64,000 nt of DNA, taken from positions 92,439 through 156,438 of the forward strand of contig CAYPKD010000003.1 in NCBI GenBank assembly GCA_964411255.1, read 5' to 3'. This stretch comes from an uncultured Gammaproteobacteria bacterium (GTDB lineage: Bacteria > Patescibacteriota > Patescibacteriia > UBA11705 > DATKZF01). Position 1 is the first letter of the stretch. Each line of letters opens with the position of its first letter. Shown here piece by piece: positions 2,042-31,130 of this stretch. The translations under genes were made by a program, and so were the position numbers. The notes under the pieces are model-generated. The model worked only from the letters and a program-made list of their open reading frames with translations, was not told the DNA's origin and ran no database searches.

Positions 2042-3436
2042 ATGACACAAGATAACGAGCAACTCTGGCAAGCTGTGCTCGGTGAATTAGAGCTCAATTT
2101 AAGCAAAGCCAGCTTTACCACTTGGTTCAAAAATACTTTTATTATTGAAAATGAAGAGGGGCGTATTATTATTGGCGTCCCAAATACCTTTTCTCAGGCC
2201 TGGCTGAAACAAAAATACCACAATGACATTTCTAAAACTCTGCAGAATTTGACAGGACTAAGACTTAAAGAAATTTCCTATAAAGTCCAAAACAAAAAAG
2301 ATTTTAAACCAATTGAAAAAGAACCTGAACATAAAATTGAAATAAGTCAAACTGAAATTAAACAAAAAACAGCTGAGTCAAGCTATACGCAGCCGTCAAG
2401 CGAAGAACCACATCAAAACATAAACCCTAATTATGCTTTTGTCACCTTTATCGTTGGCAAAAACAATGAATTAGCTCAGGCTGCTTCTAAGGCAGTGGCT
2501 GAAAATCCAGGATTTACTTATAATCCTCTTTTTATTTATGGCGGAGTTGGTCTAGGAAAAACTCATCTTTTACAAGCAATTGGTAATGATATTGTTGAAA
2601 AAGACTCAAATAAAAAACTTCTCTATGTTACCTGCGAACAATTTACAAATGACTTTATCAATTCGATATCTGCCGGAAATACAGAAAAATTTCAAAAACA
2701 TTATCGTACCCCTGATGTACTGCTAATAGATGACATTCAATTTCTTACTGGAAAAGAAGGAACGCAGGAAGCTTTCTTTCATACCTTTAATGACCTGCAC
2801 CAAAGGAACAAACAAATTGTTATAACTTCAGACCGGCCTCCAAAAGCAATTGCTACATTAGAAGACAGGTTATTATCAAGATTTGAATGGGGAATGATAG
2901 CTGATATCTCACAGCCTGACCTAGAAACACGAGTAGCAATATTAGAAAAAAAATGTCAGGAGAAAAACTGCGAATTAGACAGGGACATAATCAACTACAT
3001 TACTCAAAACATTCAAAATAATGTCAGAGAATTAGAAGGGGCGCTAAATAAGATAATTGCCTATCATCAATTAAACAAAATTCCACCAACAATTGAGAAC
3101 GTAAAAAAAATAATATTTTCATTAAGCAATGCTGGTGGGCAAAAAGCTTCCATTACCCCTAAACATATGATCGAAACGGTCGGAAAGTTTTATGATATAA
3201 GCACAGATGACATAATTGGAAAATGCAGACAAAAAAGATTAGCTTTTCCAAGACAAATCATTATGTTTTTAATGAGAGAAGAAATGAGATCTTCTTATCC
3301 GTCAATTGGCCAAGAACTAGGAGGCAGAGACCATACAACCGCTATGCATGCCCATACAAAAATTTCAGACTTACTTGAAAATGATGAGAAGCTCAGGCAG
3401 GAAATAAACTTAATCAAGCAACTTTTATACCAATAA
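2042..3436 (+). CDS. dnaA: Chromosomal replication initiator protein DnaA
   Basis: 464 aa. N-terminal DnaA domain (WQAVLGELELNLSKASFTTWF), AAA+ Walker A GGVGLGKTHLLQAIGN, and a C-terminal DNA-binding domain. Confidence 0.95.
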   Translation: MTQDNEQLWQAVLGELELNLSKASFTTWFKNTFIIENEEGRIIIGVPNTFSQAWLKQKYHNDISKTLQNLTGLRLKEISYKVQNKKDFKPIEKEPEHKIEISQTEIKQKTAESSYTQPSSEEPHQNINPNYAFVTFIVGKNNELAQAASKAVAENPGFTYNPLFIYGGVGLGKTHLLQAIGNDIVEKDSNKKLLYVTCEQFTNDFINSISAGNTEKFQKHYRTPDVLLIDDIQFLTGKEGTQEAFFHTFNDLHQRNKQIVITSDRPPKAIATLEDRLLSRFEWGMIADISQPDLETRVAILEKKCQEKNCELDRDIINYITQNIQNNVRELEGALNKIIAYHQLNKIPPTIENVKKIIFSLSNAGGQKASITPKHMIETVGKFYDISTDDIIGKCRQKRLAFPRQIIMFLMREEMRSSYPSIGQELGGRDHTTAMHAHTKISDLLENDEKLRQEINLIKQLLYQ

Positions 3437-3559
3437 ACTGTTTATAGTCTTTGGACAAGTCTGTGTAGAAGATGTTCTTTAGTAAAACGATAAAAGTGGA
3501 AAACTTTTATGGCTAAAACTTATTAACTTTTCCTAAAAAAAAGCCACAGCTTAATACTC

Positions 3560-3650
3560 AATTATCCAACCACTTATTCACAACAATGACTTTAAAAATA
3601 ATCAATATAATTAAGATTAAATTAGTTTTACCACTCTATCCACAATATTA
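3560..3650. promoter_or_regulatory. DnaA-box cluster / probable DNA-unwinding part of oriC between dnaA and dnaN
   Basis: TTATCCAAC at 3562-3570 and CTATCCACA at 3636-3644 sit in a highly AT-rich spacer. Confidence 0.4.
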
Positions 3651-3699: not shown

Positions 3700-4830
3700 A
3701 TGAAATTCATTTGTACGCAAGAAAATCTAAATAGGGGGTTGTTTATTACTGGTCACTTGTCAAACAAGAATGTTAACTTACCAATTTTAAATAATGTCTT
3801 AATGAAAATAAAAGACGGTATTTTAACATTGGCTTCGACAAATTTAGAAATAGGAATAAGTTGTTCTGTTCGTGGAAAATCCGAAAAAGAAGGTGAATTC
3901 ACAGTTGAATCAAAATTAATAGCTGACTTTGTTAATTTATTATCAAATCAAAAAGTTGAAATAGAATTAGATAAAGATGATTATTTAAATATTAGTACTG
4001 CCAATTCAAAAACCAGAATAAAAGGTTTACCATCAACTGACTTTCCAGTAATTCCTCAAATTGAAAAAAAAGATCCGTATATTATAAATATTAAAGATCT
4101 TCAGAAAGCAATATCTCAAACAATTTTTGCAGTATCGACAAATGAATCAAGACCAGAAATAAACGGTATTTTTATGAGCTTTCACAATGAAACTGGTAAA
4201 TTGACATTGGTTGCCACGGACAGTTACAGACTAGCTGAGAAAAAAATAGAAATTGCCGGGAATAGCAAAAAACAAGAATTTATTGTACCAGTAAAAACGC
4301 TGCAAGAGCTTCTTAGAATATTAACAGTTCTAAAAGATGAACCTGAGGCAGTAGAAAATGTAAATGTTTATACTTCTGAGAATCAAGTTTTATTTTCAAT
4401 TGATAACGGAGTAGAAATAATTTCCAGAACAGCAGAAGGGCAATACCCTGATTATAGGCAGATTATTCCAGGTGAAAATAAGACAAAGTGTACTTTAGAG
4501 ACAGCTCATCTTTTAAAAACAATTAAAACAACAAGTTTGTTTTCTAAGACTGGAATTTTTGATATCAATTTGGAATTTTTACCTGAAAAGAATAGTTTGG
4601 TAGTTTCTTCAACTAATAATCAGCTTGGAGAGAGTGTTGCTGAGATAGAGGTTGATTTTCATGGCGATAAAAACCAGTCAGTTATAAATTACAGATATTT
4701 GCTTGATGGTTTGAATAATTTAGACAGTGAAAAAGTATCGCTGGAATTAATCGACGGTAATGTGCCTTTAGTTATTAAACCAGCAGAAGATACCAGTTAT
4801 TTGTATATTGTAATGCCGATTAAACAATGA
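3700..4830 (+). CDS. dnaN: DNA polymerase III beta sliding clamp
   Basis: 376 aa, directly downstream of dnaA, with the three-domain clamp length and a typical N-terminus (MKFICTQENLNRGL). Confidence 0.9.
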   Translation: MKFICTQENLNRGLFITGHLSNKNVNLPILNNVLMKIKDGILTLASTNLEIGISCSVRGKSEKEGEFTVESKLIADFVNLLSNQKVEIELDKDDYLNISTANSKTRIKGLPSTDFPVIPQIEKKDPYIINIKDLQKAISQTIFAVSTNESRPEINGIFMSFHNETGKLTLVATDSYRLAEKKIEIAGNSKKQEFIVPVKTLQELLRILTVLKDEPEAVENVNVYTSENQVLFSIDNGVEIISRTAEGQYPDYRQIIPGENKTKCTLETAHLLKTIKTTSLFSKTGIFDINLEFLPEKNSLVVSSTNNQLGESVAEIEVDFHGDKNQSVINYRYLLDGLNNLDSEKVSLELIDGNVPLVIKPAEDTSYLYIVMPIKQ

Positions 4831-5335: not shown

Positions 5336-5480
5336 TTTTTTATCTCCATTTTGAGGATTTGGTGATTATGAATAAATAAAGCCAAACCATTGTTTGACCT
5401 CCTATAATTAAATTATCTGAAATAGTATTAAAAATCAAGGTTTTTAAAAAATAAAAAAATACTTTTCTAAATAAGTATTT

Positions 5481-5509
5481 TATGGCCTGCCAGCCGAAGC
5501 TCCGAAGGC
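5481..5509 (-). repeat. Conserved GC-rich tRNA 3'-trailer hairpin element (copy 1)
   Basis: ggcctgccagccgaagctccgaagg lies immediately 3' of the tRNA-Leu CCA end. Near-identical copies occur at 5776-5810, 14879-14929 and 50035-50088 (plus strand). Confidence 0.6.
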
Positions 5510-5596
5510 TGGTGCCGGCGGACGGAGTCGAACCGTCACGGATTTTCATCCACAGGATTTTAAGTCCTGCGTGTCTACCAATTCCACCACGCCGGC
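5510..5596 (-). tRNA. tRNA-Leu(UAA), type II with long variable arm, CCA encoded
   Basis: Hand fold: acceptor GCCGGCG/CGCCGGC, anticodon stem CAGGA/TCCTG with loop CTTAAAA, T-arm GACGG-TTCGACT-CCGTC, discriminator A, CCA. Confidence 0.85.
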
Positions 5597-5609
5597 CTAC
5601 GCTTTCGCC

Positions 5610-5725
5610 TTACTCAAGCTTCGGCCGACAGGCCGGCCAAAGCGTAAACTTTACTCAAGCTTCGGCCGACAGGCCGGCCAAAGCGTAAACTTTACTCAAG
5701 CTTCGGCCGACAGGCCGGCTAAAGC
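5610..5725. repeat. Tandem 41-bp repeat, about 2.8 copies, between tRNA-Leu and tRNA-Gly
   Basis: The unit ttactcaagcttcggccgacaggccggccaaagcgtaaact is repeated head-to-tail and contains a cggcc-gaca-ggccg hairpin. A related motif lies in the tRNA-Gly 5' leader (5886-5945). Confidence 0.8.
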
Positions 5726-5775
5726 TGATTTTCTAAACTCCAACCCTCGATTCTCCGACGTACTGACAGGTGATT

Positions 5776-5810
5776 TGGCCTGCCAGCCGAAGCTCCGAAG
5801 GAGCGAAGGC
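5776..5810 (-). repeat. Conserved GC-rich tRNA 3'-trailer hairpin element (copy 2)
   Basis: tggcctgccagccgaagctccgaaggagcgaagg lies directly 3' of tRNA-Gly. Confidence 0.6.
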
Positions 5811-5885
5811 TGGAGCGGGTAACGGGAATCGAACCCGTATCTCTGCCATGGCAAGGCAATATAATAGCCATTATACTATACCCGC
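5811..5885 (-). tRNA. tRNA-Gly(GCC)
   Basis: Hand fold: acceptor GCGGGTA/TACCCGC, anticodon loop TTGCCAT, T-arm ACGGG-TTCGATT-CCCGT, discriminator T, CCA. Confidence 0.85.
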
Positions 5886-6088
5886 CTACGCTTTTCTTTG
5901 AAAAGCTTCGGCGGGCAGGCCCGCAACCGAAAAGCTTTTCAATATGAAAAGAGTAAGAATTATGTATTATTTATTTTATACTGATCTACCAATCTAATAA
6001 TAACATCAAATATTATAGCAAATCCACATAAAATGTCAATGATTAGTTGATTTATTAAATAAAAAACAGCCCTTTTTAAGTGCTGTTG

Positions 6089-13284: not shown

Positions 13285-13533
13285 TTAATGACTAGATTTA
13301 ACCAGATTTTCTTTTTCAATTTTCGTTAAACGTTTTATTTGCGCTTCTCTTTTCTGTGCTTCTGATCGGCTGTTAAATTTTTCAAAATAAACAATTTTTA
13401 CAGGTCTTCTATATTTTGTATATTTAGCTCCTTCGCCTTTATTATGCTTTTCTTCTCTAGCTTTAATATTTATACAAGATCCTGTGTATAACGAATTGTC
13501 ATTACATCGGGCAATGTATGTGAAGTATTTCAT
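13285..13533 (-). CDS. GIY-YIG nuclease superfamily protein (UPF0213/YhbQ-like)
   Basis: 82 aa. YIARCNDNSLYTGSCINIKAREEKHNKGEGAKYTKYRRPVKIVYFEKFNSRSEAQKRE matches the small GIY-YIG domain pattern. Confidence 0.75.
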   Translation of the reverse strand: MKYFTYIARCNDNSLYTGSCINIKAREEKHNKGEGAKYTKYRRPVKIVYFEKFNSRSEAQKREAQIKRLTKIEKENLVKSSH

Positions 13534-13614
13534 TTTAATATATAAAAGATTTAATTAATTTGTATCACTATTTATGGCTGTGCTATTCGAAGTTCGCCAA
13601 AGGCGAACGAAGAA

Positions 13615-13690
13615 TGGTGGACCTGACTGGACTTGAACCAGCGACCTCCTCCATGCCATGGAGGCGCTCTACCAACTAAGCTACAGGCCC
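13615..13690 (-). tRNA. tRNA-Ala(GGC) with G3:U70 identity pair
   Basis: Hand fold: GGGCCTG acceptor with G3-T70, anticodon loop ATGGCAT, T-arm GTCGC-TGGTTCAAGTCC region, discriminator A, CCA. Confidence 0.8.
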
Positions 13691-25133: not shown

Positions 25134-26267
25134 TTATTTAAATTTTAATTGTTTAGATTTTTTAGACCTGGTTTCAAACCAGGCAGCAAACATAGCAGTC
25201 AGCGGTATCGCTCCGATTAAGCCGATGCTACCGGCAATTGACCGAATAATTTCTTCAGCCATAAATTCAAAATTGAATATTTTCAGATAGCTTTCTCCAA
25301 AACTGGAAAATAATAACAGCAAGCCAAGTGAAGCGCCAACATAGGCATATATAAGCGTATTGCTCATTGTGCCAATAATATCTTTTCCAATTCGCACGCC
25401 AGATTTAAATAATTCCTTTGAATTTAGTTTTGGATTAGCCTTTTTTATTTCATTGATCGAAGATGAAATGGACATAGCAACATCCATTACTGCGCCGATT
25501 GCGCCAATCATAATTGCTGAATAAAATAAGCCGTTAAAATTGAGATTTGGAAATTTTGCAAAGAGCGTTCTGGTTTCTTCATGGCCAAATCCGGTTAAAA
25601 TGGTCATTTTTCCGAAAATTAATGCCAAAATAACTGAGACAATAAGGCCGAAAATCGTTCCTAATATTGAGGATGCAGCCTTTTTATTCCAGCCACTGAT
25701 TAACAGAAATGTTATTACAGTAATAACACTGCAAAATATAATTGTCAAAAAAATCGGACTTGTTCCTTTTAATATTCCAGGAAGTAGGAATTTTAATATA
25801 AATAATATTCCTAAAAGTAAACTGATAACAGTTTTTAAACCCTGAAAGCCTCCAAAAATTATTAACAAGGCAAAAAATATTAAAATTATTACAATGATTT
25901 TTCCCAGTCGATAATAATCATGCACATAATGATTGATCGTTCCATCTGACATTTGTTCAACGTAAAGTACGATCTTGTCTCCTTGTTCTAAATCCATCGC
26001 ATATGGATTGTTTTCAATTGTGTTTGTTAAAGAAACGGTTTGATTTTTAAATTCACCGCTTAATATTTTTACTTTTAATTCCTGTAATACACTTTCATCT
26101 TCAAGTTGAACTTGATGAATAGCTAAAATTTCAGCTTTTTCATAATGAGATTCAGAAATTGTTTTTGGCTCAATATTTTCAGCTTCAGCAGTGATTTCCA
26201 TATCCTGTGCAAAAGCTGGCTGTGATGCAAGCAAAAATAAAAAAAATATAAATAAAAGTTTTTTCAT
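25134..26267 (-). CDS. YibE/F-like polytopic membrane protein
   Basis: 377 aa with a signal peptide, an extracytoplasmic N-domain and multiple TM helices. Family assignment is from overall architecture only. Confidence 0.45.
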   Translation of the reverse strand: MKKLLFIFFLFLLASQPAFAQDMEITAEAENIEPKTISESHYEKAEILAIHQVQLEDESVLQELKVKILSGEFKNQTVSLTNTIENNPYAMDLEQGDKIVLYVEQMSDGTINHYVHDYYRLGKIIVIILIFFALLIIFGGFQGLKTVISLLLGILFILKFLLPGILKGTSPIFLTIIFCSVITVITFLLISGWNKKAASSILGTIFGLIVSVILALIFGKMTILTGFGHEETRTLFAKFPNLNFNGLFYSAIMIGAIGAVMDVAMSISSSINEIKKANPKLNSKELFKSGVRIGKDIIGTMSNTLIYAYVGASLGLLLLFSSFGESYLKIFNFEFMAEEIIRSIAGSIGLIGAIPLTAMFAAWFETRSKKSKQLKFK

Positions 26268-26734
26268 ATTTTACCTTTGAAAGGTTCTTTTAAAAGTAAA
26301 ATAGCCACTCCGATTACAATCCAGACATCAGCTAGATTAAAAACTGCAAGTTGATAATCAAATATGTTAAGTGAAATAAAATCAATAACACCGTCATGAA
26401 TAATCCTGTCAAAAAGATTTGAAATGGCACCAACAATAATTATAAAATACGCTATAATCTGGATGCTATTATCTTTCTTTATTGCCCTATATAAAAGATA
26501 TATTAATATTATAATGATCAAAGCAACAATGGCAAAAATAATATATTGCGGCATAGATATGCTAAACGCCAGGTTTTGGTTTTTTATTAATTGCAAGGAA
26601 AAAACAAAATTATTTTGTTCAATTAAAAAAACACCTTCTTGCGGAATTTTTGTTAGTACTAGAAATTTTATTGTTTGATCAATGGCAAGTAATAAAATTG
26701 GAATTATATATGCCAAGATTTTTTTGCCAGGCAT
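26264..26734 (-). CDS. lspA: Lipoprotein signal peptidase II
   Basis: AISNLFDRIIHDGVIDFISL and AVFNLADVWIVIG motifs. The start was moved to the internal MPGKK, 4 nt after the upstream gene's stop. Confidence 0.8.
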   Translation of the reverse strand: MPGKKILAYIIPILLLAIDQTIKFLVLTKIPQEGVFLIEQNNFVFSLQLIKNQNLAFSISMPQYIIFAIVALIIIILIYLLYRAIKKDNSIQIIAYFIIIVGAISNLFDRIIHDGVIDFISLNIFDYQLAVFNLADVWIVIGVAILLLKEPFKGKI

Positions 26735-26738
26735 TTTA

Positions 26739-27107
26739 TTAAAGAGATTTAAGTTTTGTTTTACAGGTGATGCAGGCACTTGATGTTGGGCGAGCTAACA
26801 ATCTGTCCCCATTTATTGGCTGCTTGCAATATTTACACGTGCCATAAATTCCTTTTTTTATTCTATCTAGAGCCTTATTAACATCACGTAATTCCTTTTC
26901 TAAAGTAGCTTCTAAAGTCAAATTCACATCAAAAGTAGCCACCTCATTCGTATTTTCCGTTTCATCATCACCATAATTTGGAAAATCAGACTTGTAATCA
27001 GATGGATCTTTTTTGCTTGGATGTGCAAATTTAGCTAATTCTTTTTCTAAATTAGCTTTTTCCTCGAGTAATTTTTCCTTTATTTGATTTTGTATGTCTT
27101 TTTTCAT
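26739..27107 (-). CDS. DksA/TraR-family C4 zinc-finger protein
   Basis: 122 aa with a coiled-coil N-terminus and C-terminal CKYCKQPI...CITCK. Confidence 0.7.
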   Translation of the reverse strand: MKKDIQNQIKEKLLEEKANLEKELAKFAHPSKKDPSDYKSDFPNYGDDETENTNEVATFDVNLTLEATLEKELRDVNKALDRIKKGIYGTCKYCKQPINGDRLLARPTSSACITCKTKLKSL

Positions 27108-27171
27108 AAAGCCTTATTATATATAGTTTACCTATTAATGGTGTTTTTTGCAATATAGCACATTTTTTTTA

Positions 27172-27475
27172 AAAATACAAAGGGGCACTACTACGACCCA
27201 ATTGTTTAAAAGTGGCCTGTGTGCCCCTAGAAGTAAAGGAGATTACGCTACTTCCATTTCGATTTGGAGAATCGAGCTGGAAGACAAAGCGATTTCCTGA
27301 TTTTGCGCTCGACTCGCGATCCAGTCCCCGTTTCCTAGGTGTTGCCTTAGGCGCAAGGTCACCGTTCATTTTGTTTTTGTTTTTGTTTCATTACAGGAGT
27401 CCTGTCGAGGCGGGGCTCGCTGTATAAGAAAACAGGATGACTGGAGTTTTCCTAGGTTAGAAAAACTCAGTGAGG
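27172..27475 (-). ncRNA. Candidate structured non-coding RNA or long leader of the dksA-like/lspA operon (class unknown), ending in an intrinsic terminator
   Basis: About 48% GC over roughly 300 nt in an AT-rich genome. No convincing ORF: frames lack SD and read through the terminator hairpin ggggcac..gtgcccc (27183-27227), which is followed by tttgtattttt on the minus strand. Class-specific motifs for tmRNA, RNase P, SRP RNA and T-box were not found by eye. Confidence 0.3.
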
Positions 27476-27689
27476 AAATATAGTTGTTTACTATAAAGAA
27501 CTGTAAAGAACAACAAATTTATTCAATGGTTTTCCTTTTGATAGATAGAATGTGATCTACCTACTTATATTATATCAAGACCATTTTTTTGCGTCAATGT
27601 CCAATTTTTATTTATTAAAAAAAATGGCTCATTTTAGCCAAATATATGCGCGATAATTACAAATTTAAATATAAAAATAATGAATTTTC

Positions 27690-27726
27690 TGTGGATAACC
27701 TATATAAAAGTGGGTACTTATCCACA
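27690..27726. promoter_or_regulatory. Inverted pair of perfect DnaA boxes (TGTGGATAA ... TTATCCACA) flanking a TATATAAAA element
   Basis: 27690-27698 is the reverse complement of TTATCCACA. 27718-27726 is TTATCCACA. A 19-bp spacer contains tatataaaa. An 18-bp near-palindrome gtacacactagtgtatac follows at 27733-27750. Confidence 0.5.
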
Positions 27727-27739
27727 GCGAAAGTACACA

Positions 27740-28948
27740 CTAGTGTATACAAATCGCTATTCTGTCTGTTGATCTATTGATTAGAATATTTTCGAAAATG
27801 AATCGTGATGGGTCATTAATGTAAATGATATTATTTTGGCCATTTTTGTTTAGTGTTGTCAAGCCACATTTTTCATATTTGATTTGATCTGAAAAAGATA
27901 GTGTATGATCAATATTTGATAATTGGATAAAATTTTGATCATAAAGCCTTAAATAATATTTTTCATTTTGGTGGGAAATTGAAAGGCTACCATTTTCATT
28001 TTCTTGCCAATTATATACTGTCCTGTCAGCAATTATTTGAGTTGAGATTGAACCATCTACCAGCCGTTTTGTCTGCTTTTTGGGGTATTTGTAAGCTAAA
28101 TGATCAATTATGCTATTTTTTATTGTATTTTCTGCTGTTTTTGGCGCTAAAACCAGCCAATTATCTTCATCATTTATCAATAAATCAATACAGGTATTAG
28201 TATTTGCTAGAAAGGGAATTTTTGTGAGATTATTGTTGCTTGTTGATAAATTGTTAATATAATACTGATAATTTGAAAAATCAGGAATTTGTATATTATT
28301 TTTACAATTATTTGGGTTTTTTAGCTGTTTTGCGCTTAATTTCGTAAAATCATTTTCAATTTGTATTTTCCAAAAGGTCTCTTCATCAAGAATCAGCATA
28401 TTTTCATTAAAATATGGCAGATCAGAATAATCTTTAATATAAATGTTTGCCTTTGAAAAATCAAAGCGTTTTTTTGTTCTATATGTATGATTGTTTGATA
28501 ATGGCTGATTTTCATCAATTACTGTCTTTACTATACTCACATTTTCTGTTGATTCAATTGCATAGCTATTATATTTCAATGATTTTGAGAAAATATTAAA
28601 ATCTGTTGGTTTGAAAATAAAAATCCATTGCTTTTCCGCCTGAATAATTGCGAATTCTGAAGAATTCATCAATTTTTCCTTAAAATTATCAGGAAAATTT
28701 TTATTTTCTGATGCAGATTCAATTATTTTGTCTAGGTTAGCACTTTCTTGTTGAAAAATTTTCTTTATTTTCCAATGGCTATATACATTTACATCTTCAT
28801 TAACAAAATCATCAATTGAATCAAAATGATAATTGAATAAAAAGAGGATAAAAAGAAAAATTCCTCCTAAAATCATAAGTAAAAATATAAGCAGAGGAAT
28901 TTTTCTTCTTTGGTGAGTTGCGTTATCTTTTATATTTAGCTCGATCAT
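27740..28948 (-). CDS. Hypothetical membrane-anchored protein (Asn-rich)
   Basis: 402 aa with an N-terminal TM helix. Its start overlaps the pnp stop by 26 nt. Confidence 0.45.
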   Translation of the reverse strand: MIELNIKDNATHQRRKIPLLIFLLMILGGIFLFILFLFNYHFDSIDDFVNEDVNVYSHWKIKKIFQQESANLDKIIESASENKNFPDNFKEKLMNSSEFAIIQAEKQWIFIFKPTDFNIFSKSLKYNSYAIESTENVSIVKTVIDENQPLSNNHTYRTKKRFDFSKANIYIKDYSDLPYFNENMLILDEETFWKIQIENDFTKLSAKQLKNPNNCKNNIQIPDFSNYQYYINNLSTSNNNLTKIPFLANTNTCIDLLINDEDNWLVLAPKTAENTIKNSIIDHLAYKYPKKQTKRLVDGSISTQIIADRTVYNWQENENGSLSISHQNEKYYLRLYDQNFIQLSNIDHTLSFSDQIKYEKCGLTTLNKNGQNNIIYINDPSRFIFENILINRSTDRIAICIH

Positions 28949-31130
28949 CCTTTTTGGAATCTTTATTAATTGCTTTAATAGATAAATTCACTCTTCCCTG
29001 GTCATCAATACTGATTACTTTCACCTTTACTGGCTTACCAACGCTAAGCACGTCAGATACTTTATTTACCCGGTATGGAGCAATTTCAGATATGTGAACT
29101 AGGCCTTCTTGGTTAGGTAGAATTTCAACCATTGCTCCAAAATCAAATAGTCTAGATACTTTACCTTCAAAGATTTCACCAACTTTTGCTTCTCTGGTTA
29201 AACTTTCAACCCATTCTGTCGCTTCTTTTGCCCCAGCCTGATCGGTTGAGGTTATTAGTACTAATCCATCAGGCTCGATATCAATACTGACACCGGTTTT
29301 ATCAATAATTTCATTAATCATTTTTCCTCCAGGACCGATAACATCCCTTATTTTATCTGGATTAATATTCATTGAAATAATTCTTGGCGCATGTGGTGAA
29401 AGTTCTGACCGCGGTTCTTTTATAATATTAGTTATTGAATCAAGAATTTCCAGGCGGGCGGTTTTTGCTTGATTTAAAGTATCTTTTACAATATCCAAAC
29501 TTAACCCACTGGTTTTTGTGTCCATTTGAATACAGGTGATCCCCTCTTTCGTGCCTGTAATTTTGAAATCCATTCCACCATCACTGTCTTCTAAGTCCTG
29601 CAGATCTGTTAAAATTTTGTAATTGCCTGAATTATCTGATGCAAGGCCCATGGCAATTCCAGCTACTGGTTTTGAAATAGGAATACCCGCGTCCATCATT
29701 GCTAAAGTTGAACCGCAGGTAGCTGCCATTGAGCTTGATCCGTTTGATCCTAAAACTTCAGATACCACTCTTATTGTATATGGAAATTTTTCTTTATCTG
29801 GTAAAAGAGACTTGATTGCTTTTTCAGCAATTGAGCCATGCCCAATATCTCTTCGGCCAGGGCCTCTTAATGGACCGGTTTCACCCACTGAATATGGAGG
29901 AAAATTGTAATGATGCATGAATCTTTTTTTGCCACTCTCTTCCATTCCCTCAAGTGTTTGCTCATCACCAGGAGAACCAAGGGTGACAACGGACAATACC
30001 TGCGTTTCTCCGCGTTGAAATAGCCCGCTGCCGTGCGTTCTAGGCAATAAACCAACTTCTACATCAAGTTTCCTGATTTCATCGATTTTTCGGCCATCAA
30101 CTCTAATACCAGTCTCTATGATCGTTTTGGTTATTTCATCTTCAATAAACTTTATAAAGAATTGTTTAATTAATTTATTTCTTTTTTCTTTGCCAATTTG
30201 TTTTTCAACTAAAAATTCTTCCAGTACATCTTGCAGTTTGCTAATCATTTCTTTCCTTGCCTTTTTGCTGTCTTTTGGTACGTTAAAAACATATTCATCC
30301 AGTTTTGGACGAAGAAATTCTTTACTTTCCTCAATTAATTTCTCAAACTCTTCCTGAGTGATTTTTTCTTCTTTTGTTAATTCATCCTCTTCGCTCATTA
30401 TTCGCGTTGATTGTTTTTCTTTACCTACTTTTTCTCTGATTTGATCAAGGAATTCCAGCTGCTTTTTCGTTTGCTTAATTGCAAATTCAAATGCTTTATA
30501 TACAGTTTCTTCATCTGCTTCTTTTGCTTCAGCGTCAATCATAATCACTTTATCTTTAGTAGTTCCTACAACCAGGTCAAGTATTGATTTTTCCCGAGCT
30601 TCATGTGATCCGTTAATTACCCACTCGCCATTGATTTGGCCGATTCTTATTCCGGCAACTGGACCAGCCCAAGGAATATCTGAAATATGAAGAGCGCATG
30701 AAGCTGCTATTAATGCGATTACATCAGGATCATTCTCTCCGTCAGCTGACAGAACTGTTAAAATGACCTGTACATCATTTCTTGTTGAATGATCAAAAAG
30801 CGGCCGCAAGGCGCGATCAATCATTCGAGAATTCAAAATTGCTTCATCAGAGGGGCGGCCTTCTCTTTTTATAAATCTAGAGCCTTTAATTTTTCCTGCC
30901 GCATACAATTTTTCTTCATAGTCTACCATAAGTGGGAAAAAATCTATGCCTTCACGGGGTTCTTTTCCCATAGTGGCTGTAGCTAAAATAACAATCCCTC
31001 CATAATGCACTACACAGCTGGCATTTGCTTGATGTGCTAATTTTCCAGTCTCTACAATCAATTGTTCTCCATTTAGCTGCATTTCAAATCTTTGAACTTT
31101 GTCTTTTTGTTCTTTTTTCTTAAAAAACAT
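28923..31130 (-). CDS. pnp: Polynucleotide phosphorylase
   Basis: 735 aa with two RNase PH domains plus KH and S1 (ETGKLAHQANASCVV..., GEIFEGKVSRLFDFGAMVEI). An alternative start at MQLNG (31082) is possible. Confidence 0.9.
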   Translation of the reverse strand: MFFKKKEQKDKVQRFEMQLNGEQLIVETGKLAHQANASCVVHYGGIVILATATMGKEPREGIDFFPLMVDYEEKLYAAGKIKGSRFIKREGRPSDEAILNSRMIDRALRPLFDHSTRNDVQVILTVLSADGENDPDVIALIAASCALHISDIPWAGPVAGIRIGQINGEWVINGSHEAREKSILDLVVGTTKDKVIMIDAEAKEADEETVYKAFEFAIKQTKKQLEFLDQIREKVGKEKQSTRIMSEEDELTKEEKITQEEFEKLIEESKEFLRPKLDEYVFNVPKDSKKARKEMISKLQDVLEEFLVEKQIGKEKRNKLIKQFFIKFIEDEITKTIIETGIRVDGRKIDEIRKLDVEVGLLPRTHGSGLFQRGETQVLSVVTLGSPGDEQTLEGMEESGKKRFMHHYNFPPYSVGETGPLRGPGRRDIGHGSIAEKAIKSLLPDKEKFPYTIRVVSEVLGSNGSSSMAATCGSTLAMMDAGIPISKPVAGIAMGLASDNSGNYKILTDLQDLEDSDGGMDFKITGTKEGITCIQMDTKTSGLSLDIVKDTLNQAKTARLEILDSITNIIKEPRSELSPHAPRIISMNINPDKIRDVIGPGGKMINEIIDKTGVSIDIEPDGLVLITSTDQAGAKEATEWVESLTREAKVGEIFEGKVSRLFDFGAMVEILPNQEGLVHISEIAPYRVNKVSDVLSVGKPVKVKVISIDDQGRVNLSIKAINKDSKKDDRAKYKR

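Follow-up and report, generated by a model that had tools for sequence, protein, structure and literature searches.

Between the gene for a 402-aa hypothetical protein and a DksA-like gene (below, dksA), the 64,000-nt stretch of DNA analysed here (the window; positions 92,439 to 156,438 of contig CAYPKD010000003.1) carries a G+C-rich region, 27172-27475, that ends in a strong hairpin on the minus strand. What is this region, and does it serve the genes behind it or act on its own? We found that it forms most of a predicted ~392-nt RNA which has its own promoter and terminator and a pseudoknotted fold backed by covariation, and which recurs with perfect DnaA boxes upstream of its promoter. The reading that we favour, with moderate confidence, is that of an independently transcribed, stable and structured RNA of ~390 nt in Falkowbacteria-, Magasanikbacteria- and Uhrbacteria-like Patescibacteria, which would act in trans as a protein scaffold or sponge.

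A G+C-rich unit with its own promoter and terminator

The G+C content of 27172-27475 is 46.1%, compared with 33.2% for the window, and only 1.9% of all 304-nt windows in the stretch are as G+C-rich. The enrichment noticed in an earlier, sequence-only reading is real, while its value of about 48% was too high and its 5′ boundary at 27475 did not hold. The top promoter match in the neighbourhood, TTGACG-17-TGaTATAAT, lies at 27597-27569 and therefore places the predicted 5′ end of the RNA near 27562, making the unit ~90 nt longer than flagged. These first 90 nt are A+T-rich and conserved among relatives. At the other end, GGGGCAC (27227-27221) pairs with GTGCCCC (27188-27182) and is followed by TTTGTATTTTT (27181-27171), 64 nt before the ATG of dksA (27107); the same hairpin and T tract had been read earlier, at 65 nt. 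This terminator, named P8 (Table 1), folds with -18.1 kcal/mol in the window and with -17 to -23.5 kcal/mol across all nine relatives, with U-tails. Its inner stem covaries, the sequence inside the hairpin is conserved (ACA.GCCA / UUGGGC..GAUCG), and an equivalent terminator design was found in distant loci.

The minimum-free-energy fold of 27165-27562 on the minus strand reached -108.5 kcal/mol, compared with -85.1 +/- 5.3 kcal/mol for shuffled sequences (z = -4.4). The opposite strand of the same interval gave z = -4.2, so the strand cannot be picked from folding energy alone. However, the other strand would turn the frequent G•U pairs, among them a U•G in helix P3, into A•C mismatches, indicating that the RNA is read on the dksA strand.

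Covariation supports a pseudoknotted fold around an A-rich strand

The close set comprises nine distinct RNA sequences (the window and eight relatives) with 64-70% mean column identity. RNAalifold predicted 70 pairs from these nine, 26 of them with compensatory changes, and covariation backs eight helices, including the long-range helix P3. The folding and covariation checks thus bear out the structured RNA that had been proposed from composition and local complementarity. In the central domain, 90.7% of the cells are paired across 19 sequences and 35 of the 37 pairs show double changes, with a covariation score of 0.448 versus 0.153 for shuffled and 0.05-0.11 for slid partners; pair counts are somewhat inflated by the fitting of alignment A5 to the model. 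An unfitted MAFFT alignment of the nine sequences gave 90.2% paired cells, double changes at 16 of 43 pairs and a score of 0.286 versus 0.178 shuffled. The corresponding values for the 3′ domain in the nine sequences are 98.1%, 12 of 23, and 0.473 versus 0.284 shuffled.

P3 is a long-range pyrimidine/purine helix with double changes at 12 of its 13 pairs across the 19 sequences, and its U•G wobble is kept in most members. It closes a junction that holds P4, the invariant strand AAACAAAAACAAAAACAAAA and P5. This strand is a 20-nt, A-rich, C-punctuated tract between two hairpins and is unpaired in every consensus fold; its exact pattern was found in 23 loci and is unique in the window at 0 mismatches. 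The loops of P4 and P6 form a pseudoknot of six pairs that ties the P3 junction to the 3′ domain, paired at 100% in 9/9 sequences and with double changes at two of the six pairs. Both halves covary in loci L057 (CUCGCU / AGCGAG) and L069 (CUCGCU / GGCGAG), and the loops vary to CUCGGC / GUCGAG in L004 and to CUCGAC / GUCGGG in L054. In the 3′ domain, P7 has 16 pairs, eight of them with double changes, and is 96-100% paired.

P2 shows no double changes in the close set and gains them in the 19-sequence set, and the counterpart of P1 in L055 is GUGAACAC/GUGUUCAC. A direct stem search recovered P3 in other subtypes with different sequences (CUUCUCUACUG / UGGUAGAGAAG; CCUUUUUACUACC / GGCGGUAGAAAGG; GCUUUUUACUAGUCAA / UUGACCGGUAAAAAGC), and helix registers vary between subtypes. 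The resemblance of CCUAAG in P5 to the 11-nt tetraloop receptor was dropped, as it is not conserved. The invariant sequence of the 5′ hairpin, GGAUCACAUUCC (27546-27559, minus strand), resembles the 3′ end of 16S rRNA (GGAUCACCUCC).

A second conserved single strand, (U/A)AAUCUCCUUUAC, precedes the terminator and is complementary to the Shine-Dalgarno-like AAAGGAGA. The unit might thus be a base-pairing small RNA (sRNA), whose single strand AAAUCUCCUUUAC would pair with the Shine-Dalgarno-like AAAGGAGA of a target and block its translation. The motif is nearly invariant in the nine sequences, is unpaired in the consensus folds and adjoins the terminator hairpin, like the seeds of many sRNAs. 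However, it is limited to the close subfamily, a similar CU-rich sequence in the distant types is the 5′ strand of P3, and a 390-nt pseudoknotted scaffold far exceeds what a seed carrier needs, which makes a base-pairing sRNA decidedly improbable.

The region is non-coding and matches no known RNA family

The region has only two open reading frames (ORFs), one of 66 aa that continues through the terminator and one of 71 aa on the opposite strand, and neither has a Pfam match or is conserved in relatives. The start of the 66-aa frame is lost in six of eight relatives, where it is broken up by stops and by indels of lengths not divisible by three, and its product has no record as a called gene. 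A small protein gene was rejected because no reading frame is conserved among relatives, in agreement with the non-coding status first assigned to the region.

We then compared the unit with known RNA families. For the window and 12 distant loci, Rfam 15 returned at its gathering scores only tRNAs and one HPnc0260 match antisense to a tRNA, and for the region and L014 only chance-level matches were obtained at E <= 10. A literature search found no prior description of this RNA, nor of any clade-specific structured RNA in Patescibacteria. The unit appears to represent a new class of RNA, a family absent from Rfam 15, and the class that the sequence-only reading had left unassigned stays so after scans of the window, the region and the distant loci. 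The HPnc0260 match (13524-13653, plus strand; 60.5 against a gathering score of 59) is antisense to tRNA-Ala (13615-13690) and is very likely a tRNA-driven false positive.

Transfer-messenger RNA (tmRNA), RNase P RNA, signal recognition particle (SRP) RNA and the T-box had been dismissed by eye, and ARAGORN and Rfam gave the same answer. In the window, ARAGORN found nine tRNAs and no tmRNA; no tmRNA model matched at E <= 10, there is no tRNA-like domain, and the 3′ end is the terminator hairpin. A tmRNA look-alike, GGGGACUGG...GUCGAG, pairs locally or in the pseudoknot. The longest ORFs in six frames switch frame and strand among relatives, no systematic look for a short tag frame being included, and by eye L004 lacks a stop codon that closes one possible short frame in the window. 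For RNase P RNA, neither RF00010 nor RF00011 matched at E <= 10, the complementary CR-V/P4 strand (ACAGAA..GGCUUA) is absent, and so is a P1 stem joining the ends, as both ends lie in local hairpins. The look-alike AGGAAAACUCC (compare CR-I, GGAAAGUCC) belongs to the local hairpin P2, as its 3′ strand. SRP RNA (helix 8/domain IV with its GNAR loop) had no Rfam match at E <= 10, and the T-box model RF00230 had none at that threshold in the window or L014.

A divergent housekeeping RNA, either RNase P RNA or tmRNA, could in principle be missed by standard models, and the size of ~390 nt and the strong promoter fit such an RNA. RNase P RNAs of the candidate phyla radiation (CPR) are divergent and sometimes fall under the Rfam cut-offs (PMC8172020), and AGGAAAACUCC is faintly like CR-I GGAAAGUCC. 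However, the divergent CPR RNAs are reported to be still recognisably class A (PMC8172020). Moreover, RF00010, RF00011 and the tmRNA models are unmatched at E <= 10 and ARAGORN is negative; AGGAAAAC pairs locally in P2 and has no CR-V/P4 partner strand; a tRNA-like domain is lacking, and the ORF analysis shows no conserved frame; and the 3′ end, a terminator hairpin, is neither a P1 nor an acceptor stem. We consider a missed housekeeping RNA highly improbable.

The dksA linkage also brings 6S RNA to mind. 6S (ssrS) and Ms1 RNAs are, like this unit, independent and probably abundant genes directly upstream of a co-oriented protein gene, and here the DksA-like neighbour offers a possible link to RNA polymerase. 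The unit could accordingly be a functional analogue of 6S/Ms1, an abundant RNA-polymerase-binding RNA linked to a DksA-like secondary-channel factor much as in ssrS-ygfA. The conserved linkage to a DksA/TraR-type gene and the strong promoter are in its favour, the ~20-nt strand, kept open between helices, could imitate melted DNA, and no 6S RNA was found in the 64-kb window or the other scanned loci, although 64 kb of genome is covered and an ordinary 6S gene may sit elsewhere. On the other hand, the Rfam 6S models are unmatched even at E <= 10, and the fold is multi-domain with a pseudoknotted junction rather than a rod: no stem joins the 5′ and 3′ ends, there is no two-stranded central bubble, the 3′ hairpin is self-contained, and the RNA is twice the length of 6S. 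The label "6S-like", offered earlier as an example, could not be kept, and a 6S/Ms1 analogue is distinctly unlikely.

Large bacterial RNAs with complex covarying folds and no assigned function are rare, and past ones have led to ribozymes, riboswitches and RNA-protein machines. OLE, ROOL, GOLLD and the raiA motif RNA are likewise several hundred nt long, with many covarying helices and a pseudoknot; they too are lineage-restricted, sit in a conserved gene neighbourhood and had no known biochemical function at discovery. None of the covariance models for OLE, ROOL, GOLLD, raiA and HEARO matched at the gathering score or at E <= 10, and the present RNA differs from the first four in its lack of any Rfam 15 match, its Patescibacteria host, the invariant A-rich strand and the DnaA-box promoter context.

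The unit recurs in Falkowbacteria-, Magasanikbacteria- and Uhrbacteria-like Patescibacteria

A genome-collection scan with the DksA-like protein gave 45 loci, among which only the closest, L004, had nucleotide similarity to the spacer. Further syntenic contigs were reached through protein homologues at 77-87% identity. Reading 650 nt upstream of dksA, we found units like the promoter-to-terminator RNA of the window in about 25 more distant Patescibacteria loci. They start at a TTGACA-17-TGnTATAAT promoter scoring 11-13/13 and contain 320-470 nt of G+C-enriched non-coding sequence, in which an A-rich, AAACAAAAACAAAA-type tract lies 100-200 nt after the start. They also share a CGGUGA hairpin, a strand rich in purines, GGUAGARRGG, and a two-tier terminator, GGCGG..GCCA...YAGGGCG..CCGCC-U(4-9). 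In total, the unit is carried by about 34 loci, titled Falkowbacteria, Magasanikbacteria, Uhrbacteria and 'Patescibacteria group'.

This similarity was also detected by a covariance model, R1, which covers the central 166 positions and was trained on the nine close sequences alone. R1 matched the window once, at 27303-27470 on the minus strand. Beyond the seed, it matched upstream of dksA in L009 (E = 9e-6), L006 (2e-5), L058 (2e-4), L008 (6e-4), L007 (6e-3) and L011 (0.016), with further matches upstream of dksA in L061, L017, L015 and L013; every match is on the dksA strand. When metagenomes were scanned for two conserved RNA motifs, nothing came up beyond the known syntenic relatives and L067, a probable chance match, and thus no synteny-independent members.

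Several of these records carry unexpected titles. The Patescibacteria-type locus stands under 'uncultured Gammaproteobacteria bacterium' titles of third-party annotation (TPA) metagenome-assembled genomes (MAGs) in L008, L009, L010, L011, L014, L018-L020, L022, L024, L030, L032, L036 and L043-L047, while L029 is titled Firestonebacteria and has a masked N run inside its RNA. The Gammaproteobacteria and Firestonebacteria titles probably reflect taxonomic mislabelling or mis-binning.

Perfect DnaA boxes precede the promoter in every locus examined

Perfect DnaA boxes (TTATCCACA) were found 90-160 nt upstream of the -35 element in 34/34 loci examined. With one mismatch allowed, their density upstream of the promoter is 9.4 per kb versus 0.73 per kb locus-wide, and the 64-kb window contains only one other perfect box, before dnaA. 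The arrangement differs between subtypes: the close subfamily has an inverted pair 28 bp apart, the Uhr-type two direct boxes 31 bp apart, and the Magasanik-type two direct boxes at a distance of 32 bp and a third, inverted one; as many as seven occur in 250 bp of Magasanik-type loci when one mismatch is allowed.

A replication origin at these boxes was rejected. Mean GC skew is 0.002 to the left and -0.011 to the right, the right exceeding the left in 8/17 loci, and gene orientation does not switch at the box cluster in the 17 loci. No dnaA or dnaN lies within 6 kb of the RNA in any locus examined. Instead, the canonical rpmH<>dnaA-dnaN box cluster sits at 1.8-3.7 kb of the window, where (yidD/rnpA/)rpmH is on the minus strand and dnaA (2042-3436) and dnaN (3700-4830) are on the plus strand. 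With up to two mismatches, six boxes lie upstream of dnaA (1790-1930, one perfect at 1921) and seven in the dnaA-dnaN spacer (3450-3640). The cumulative GC skew of the window has its minimum near 5-6 kb and a second one near 31 kb.

DnaA-box clusters outside oriC, such as the DnaA-box clusters (DBCs) of B. subtilis, datA and DARS of E. coli and the nrdAB and mioC promoters, likewise consist of consensus boxes in intergenic DNA beside a promoter. As in these, the cluster upstream of the RNA has two to seven boxes at a spacing of about three helical turns, away from dnaA/oriC; it differs in that the adjacent gene is a structured RNA, and DnaA binding is predicted from sequence. The simplest reading is that DnaA may regulate the RNA promoter, or that the site may be a datA/DBC-like DnaA-box cluster with an RNA gene attached. 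We know of no DnaA-box cluster paired with a structured RNA gene.

Two further elements accompany the boxes. The palindrome TTGTATAsACTAGTsTATACAA occurs in 1-4 copies upstream of the RNA in most loci, beside the DnaA boxes (for example at L013:5282-5402, L019:5156-5412, L021:5103-5351 and L031:5137-5384), and could serve as a regulator site or represent a small repeat element. One copy forms a P4-like hairpin inside the RNA in L013:5595-5614 and L019:5602-5621, and another lies near tRNA genes at L014:1503-1522. The GCTAAwwTwAGC hairpin also accompanies the DnaA boxes in the loci; in the window, the hairpin at 27617-27640 could be either the terminator of the upstream gene or a GCTAAwwTwAGC protein site.

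The 5′ leader of dnaA contains, at 2004-2023 on the plus strand, AAATAAAAACAAAAAAAGAA, which is like the A-rich tract of the RNA (two mismatches; weak R1 match, E = 2.1). It may be a mere A-rich leader, or it may fit a decoy model in which one factor would bind both.

Independent transcript or leader of the dksA-lspA operon

The position of the RNA before dksA and lspA raises the alternative that it is a cis-acting leader, the 5′ part of the dksA-like/lspA transcript, whose terminator would be opened or closed by a ligand or factor. Long leaders such as the T-box, cobalamin and other riboswitches are similarly structured, G+C-rich relative to the genome and co-oriented upstream of an operon, and they end in an intrinsic terminator. 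In Bacillus, ylyA-lspA homologues stand behind ileS, itself preceded by a T-box leader. In every case the RNA lies upstream of the DksA-like operon and in its orientation, even where Fur and rubrerythrin genes, possibly part of the same operon, are inserted. The terminator is merely 64 nt from the ORF in the window, and the U-tract of the close subfamily is interrupted (UUUGUAUUUUU), so some read-through is plausible.

However, several observations argue against a leader. A separate promoter-like site precedes dksA in the window, overlapping the U-tract, and others were found before dksA in most distant loci; all are consensus matches, and the -10 part of the window site, TGnTATATTG, is conserved in L049, L004 and L055. 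Genes (Fur, rubrerythrin or others) lie between the RNA and dksA in L008, L015, L058 and L061, and the distance between terminator and ORF ranges from 64 to about 250 nt among loci. The Magasanik-type terminators have 6-9 uninterrupted U. The interior of the terminator hairpin is itself conserved, as in a functional domain, and the size and near-consensus promoter are atypical for leaders. No T-box or riboswitch model matched. In a weak test for a conserved antiterminator, none was found: the best competing pairings reach -9 to -13 kcal/mol, compared with -17 to -23.5 kcal/mol for the hairpin, and are not obviously conserved.

The promoter-like site of the DksA-like gene itself and the genes that separate the RNA from dksA in some lineages thus favour an independent RNA, and the near-consensus promoter, strong terminator, conserved hairpin interior and variable spacer point the same way. 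Of the two options left by the sequence-only reading, an independent sRNA or a long cis-regulatory leader, the former fits better. We consider it fairly likely, from these sequence features, that the RNA acts in trans independently of the operon, and a cis leader unlikely.

Several points weigh against the independent scaffold RNA. The start, stability and trans action of the RNA are predictions. Strict co-orientation upstream of one operon in about 30 lineages suits a cis leader too, and the dksA linkage is partly an ascertainment effect because the distant loci were all gathered through the DksA-like gene. The A-rich tract is missing in two putative members, L022 and L036, and the fitting of alignment A5 has to be kept in mind here as well.

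A possible protein-binding scaffold under DnaA influence

For the independent RNA, our best guess is a protein-binding scaffold or sponge whose expression would be tied to DnaA. It would be made at a high level from its own sigma-70 promoter under the influence of DnaA and would end at the two-tier intrinsic terminator. The transcript would fold into a compact scaffold in which P3, P4, P5 and the pseudoknot hold the A-rich strand open, and this 20-nt strand would serve in trans as a docking platform for a protein or complex. Its A-R-N triplets are the type of site bound by Hfq-like proteins and other binders of A-rich single strands. Other candidates for recognition sites are the U•G wobble of P3 and the internal loops conserved in P7 and P8. 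The DksA-like neighbour raises RNA polymerase or the DksA-like protein as a possible partner.

In Pseudomonas, the A-rich (A-R-N)-type single-stranded motifs of CrcZ and CrcY bind Hfq/Crc. These RNAs and the one described here have in common a length of about 400 nt, their own promoter and terminator, and an A-R-N-type single strand; they differ in that CrcZ has six short CA motifs and this RNA one long tract within a complex pseudoknotted fold. A CrcZ-type sponge was rejected on this single A-rich tract and on CrcZ bit scores of 8.7-9.5, where the gathering score is 95.

The perfect DnaA boxes before the promoter in every lineage would tie synthesis of the RNA to replication or growth status. 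Its length of ~400 nt, retention across deep lineages, near-consensus promoter, invariant platform and DnaA boxes suggest an important and possibly replication-linked function. More speculatively, and with clearly less confidence, the unit could be a Patescibacteria-specific class of large pseudoknotted RNAs under direct DnaA control, forming a catalytic or ribonucleoprotein machine that captures a factor on the A-rich strand or uses the P3 U•G as an active or recognition site. If so, such a machine could couple chromosome replication status to transcription or translation. Should the RNA prove to be a cis leader, it would remain a new regulatory RNA, of unusually large size, of an envelope/redox operon.

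A large part of bacterial diversity belongs to the Patescibacteria, whose genomes are tiny and in which few regulators are known. The RNA offers a concrete target for metatranscriptomics, for structural studies and for pull-downs in those few relatives that can be cultivated. The 5′ boundary, the breadth of the family, the pseudoknot and the DnaA boxes all go beyond what had been read from the region before.

Gene neighbourhood and feature coordinates

The order of genes on the minus strand is pnp, the 402-aa hypothetical protein, the RNA spacer, dksA, lspA, YibE/F, a thioredoxin-like protein and a DsbD-like protein (coordinates of the main features in Table 1). Conservation of the 402-aa protein is limited to the close subfamily, where its gene invariably lies between pnp and the RNA. 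Some lineages have Fur and rubrerythrin genes inserted after the RNA and before the DksA-like gene (L061:1226-2263; L008 about 5350-5950; L062), and genes for thioredoxin/glutaredoxin-like and DsbD-like proteins lie downstream elsewhere. These insertions and neighbours suggest an envelope/redox theme for the operon.

Table 1. Features of the RNA locus, in window coordinates, from the upstream genes to the downstream genes
Feature	Position	Strand	Basis or remark
pnp	28923-31130	minus	
402-aa protein, N-terminal membrane anchor	27740-28948	minus	No Pfam match
Imperfect palindrome TGTATACACTAGTGTGTAC, candidate regulator site	27733-27751		Family consensus TTGTATAsACTAGTsTATACAA, 20-bp
Inverted pair of perfect DnaA boxes, TGTGGATAA ... 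TTATCCACA, 28 bp centre to centre	27690-27698 and 27718-27726		About 100-130 nt upstream of -35
Hairpin TGGCTAAAATGAGCCA with T-run, between DnaA boxes and promoter	27617-27640	minus	Terminator-like; compensatory change in L004; sequence-similar in distant loci
Sigma-70-type promoter, TTGACG - 17 nt - TGaTATAAT (extended -10)	27569-27597	minus	11/12 matches plus TG; kept in relatives
Whole predicted RNA, ~392 nt, inferred start to end of U-tract	27171-27562	minus	Promoter and terminator positions; full-length homology in 8 distinct relatives
5′ hairpin UAGA-UCACAU-UCUA, invariant loop	27546-27559	minus	RNAalifold pairs 47-50/57-60; GC-to-AU and AU-to-UA changes
P1 hairpin GAAUAA / UUGUUC, with conserved GUUCUUU motif	27508-27524	minus	Alignment reading; weaker support than other helices
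P2 hairpin GAGUUUUUC / GGAAAACUC; AGGAAAAC invariant	27444-27468	minus	90.5% of cells paired
P3 5′ strand, CCAG + CCUGUUUUCU	27427-27444	minus	Pairs with 27321-27336
P4 hairpin; loop CUCGAC (27404-27409) is the 5′ half of the pseudoknot	27393-27423	minus	RNAalifold and pair counts
Single-stranded tract AAACAAAAACAAAAACAAAA, six or seven A-R-N triplets	27369-27388	minus	Invariant or near-invariant
P5 hairpin, outer GGUG...CACC, inner CCUU/AAGG	27338-27363	minus	All 8 pairs with double changes
P3 3′ strand, AGGAAACGGGG + CUGG	27321-27336	minus	RNAalifold, pair counts, stem search
P6 hairpin GCG-aGUCGAG-CGC; loop GUCGAG (27308-27313) is the 3′ half of the pseudoknot	27305-27317	minus	
P7 three-part hairpin CGCU / CUUCCA / UCGAUU ... 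AAUCGA / UGGAAG / AGCG	27246-27291	minus	Conserved UUGU internal loop
Single-stranded motif (U/A)AAUCUCCUUUAC, nearly invariant	27233-27245	minus	Close subfamily only; unpaired in consensus folds
P8 two-tier terminator hairpin, outer GGGGCAC/GUGCCCC, inner GGCC/GGUC	27171-27227	minus	Conserved ACA..GCCA and UUGGG, then U-tract
Promoter-like site of the DksA-like operon, TTGTAT - 17 nt - TGcTATATT, overlapping the U-tract	27152-27180	minus	Consensus match, inferred
DksA/TraR-type zinc-finger protein, 122 aa, conserved downstream neighbour	26739-27107	minus	Pfam PF01258, E = 7e-7
lspA (signal peptidase II)	26264-26734	minus	Pfam PF01252, E = 4e-28

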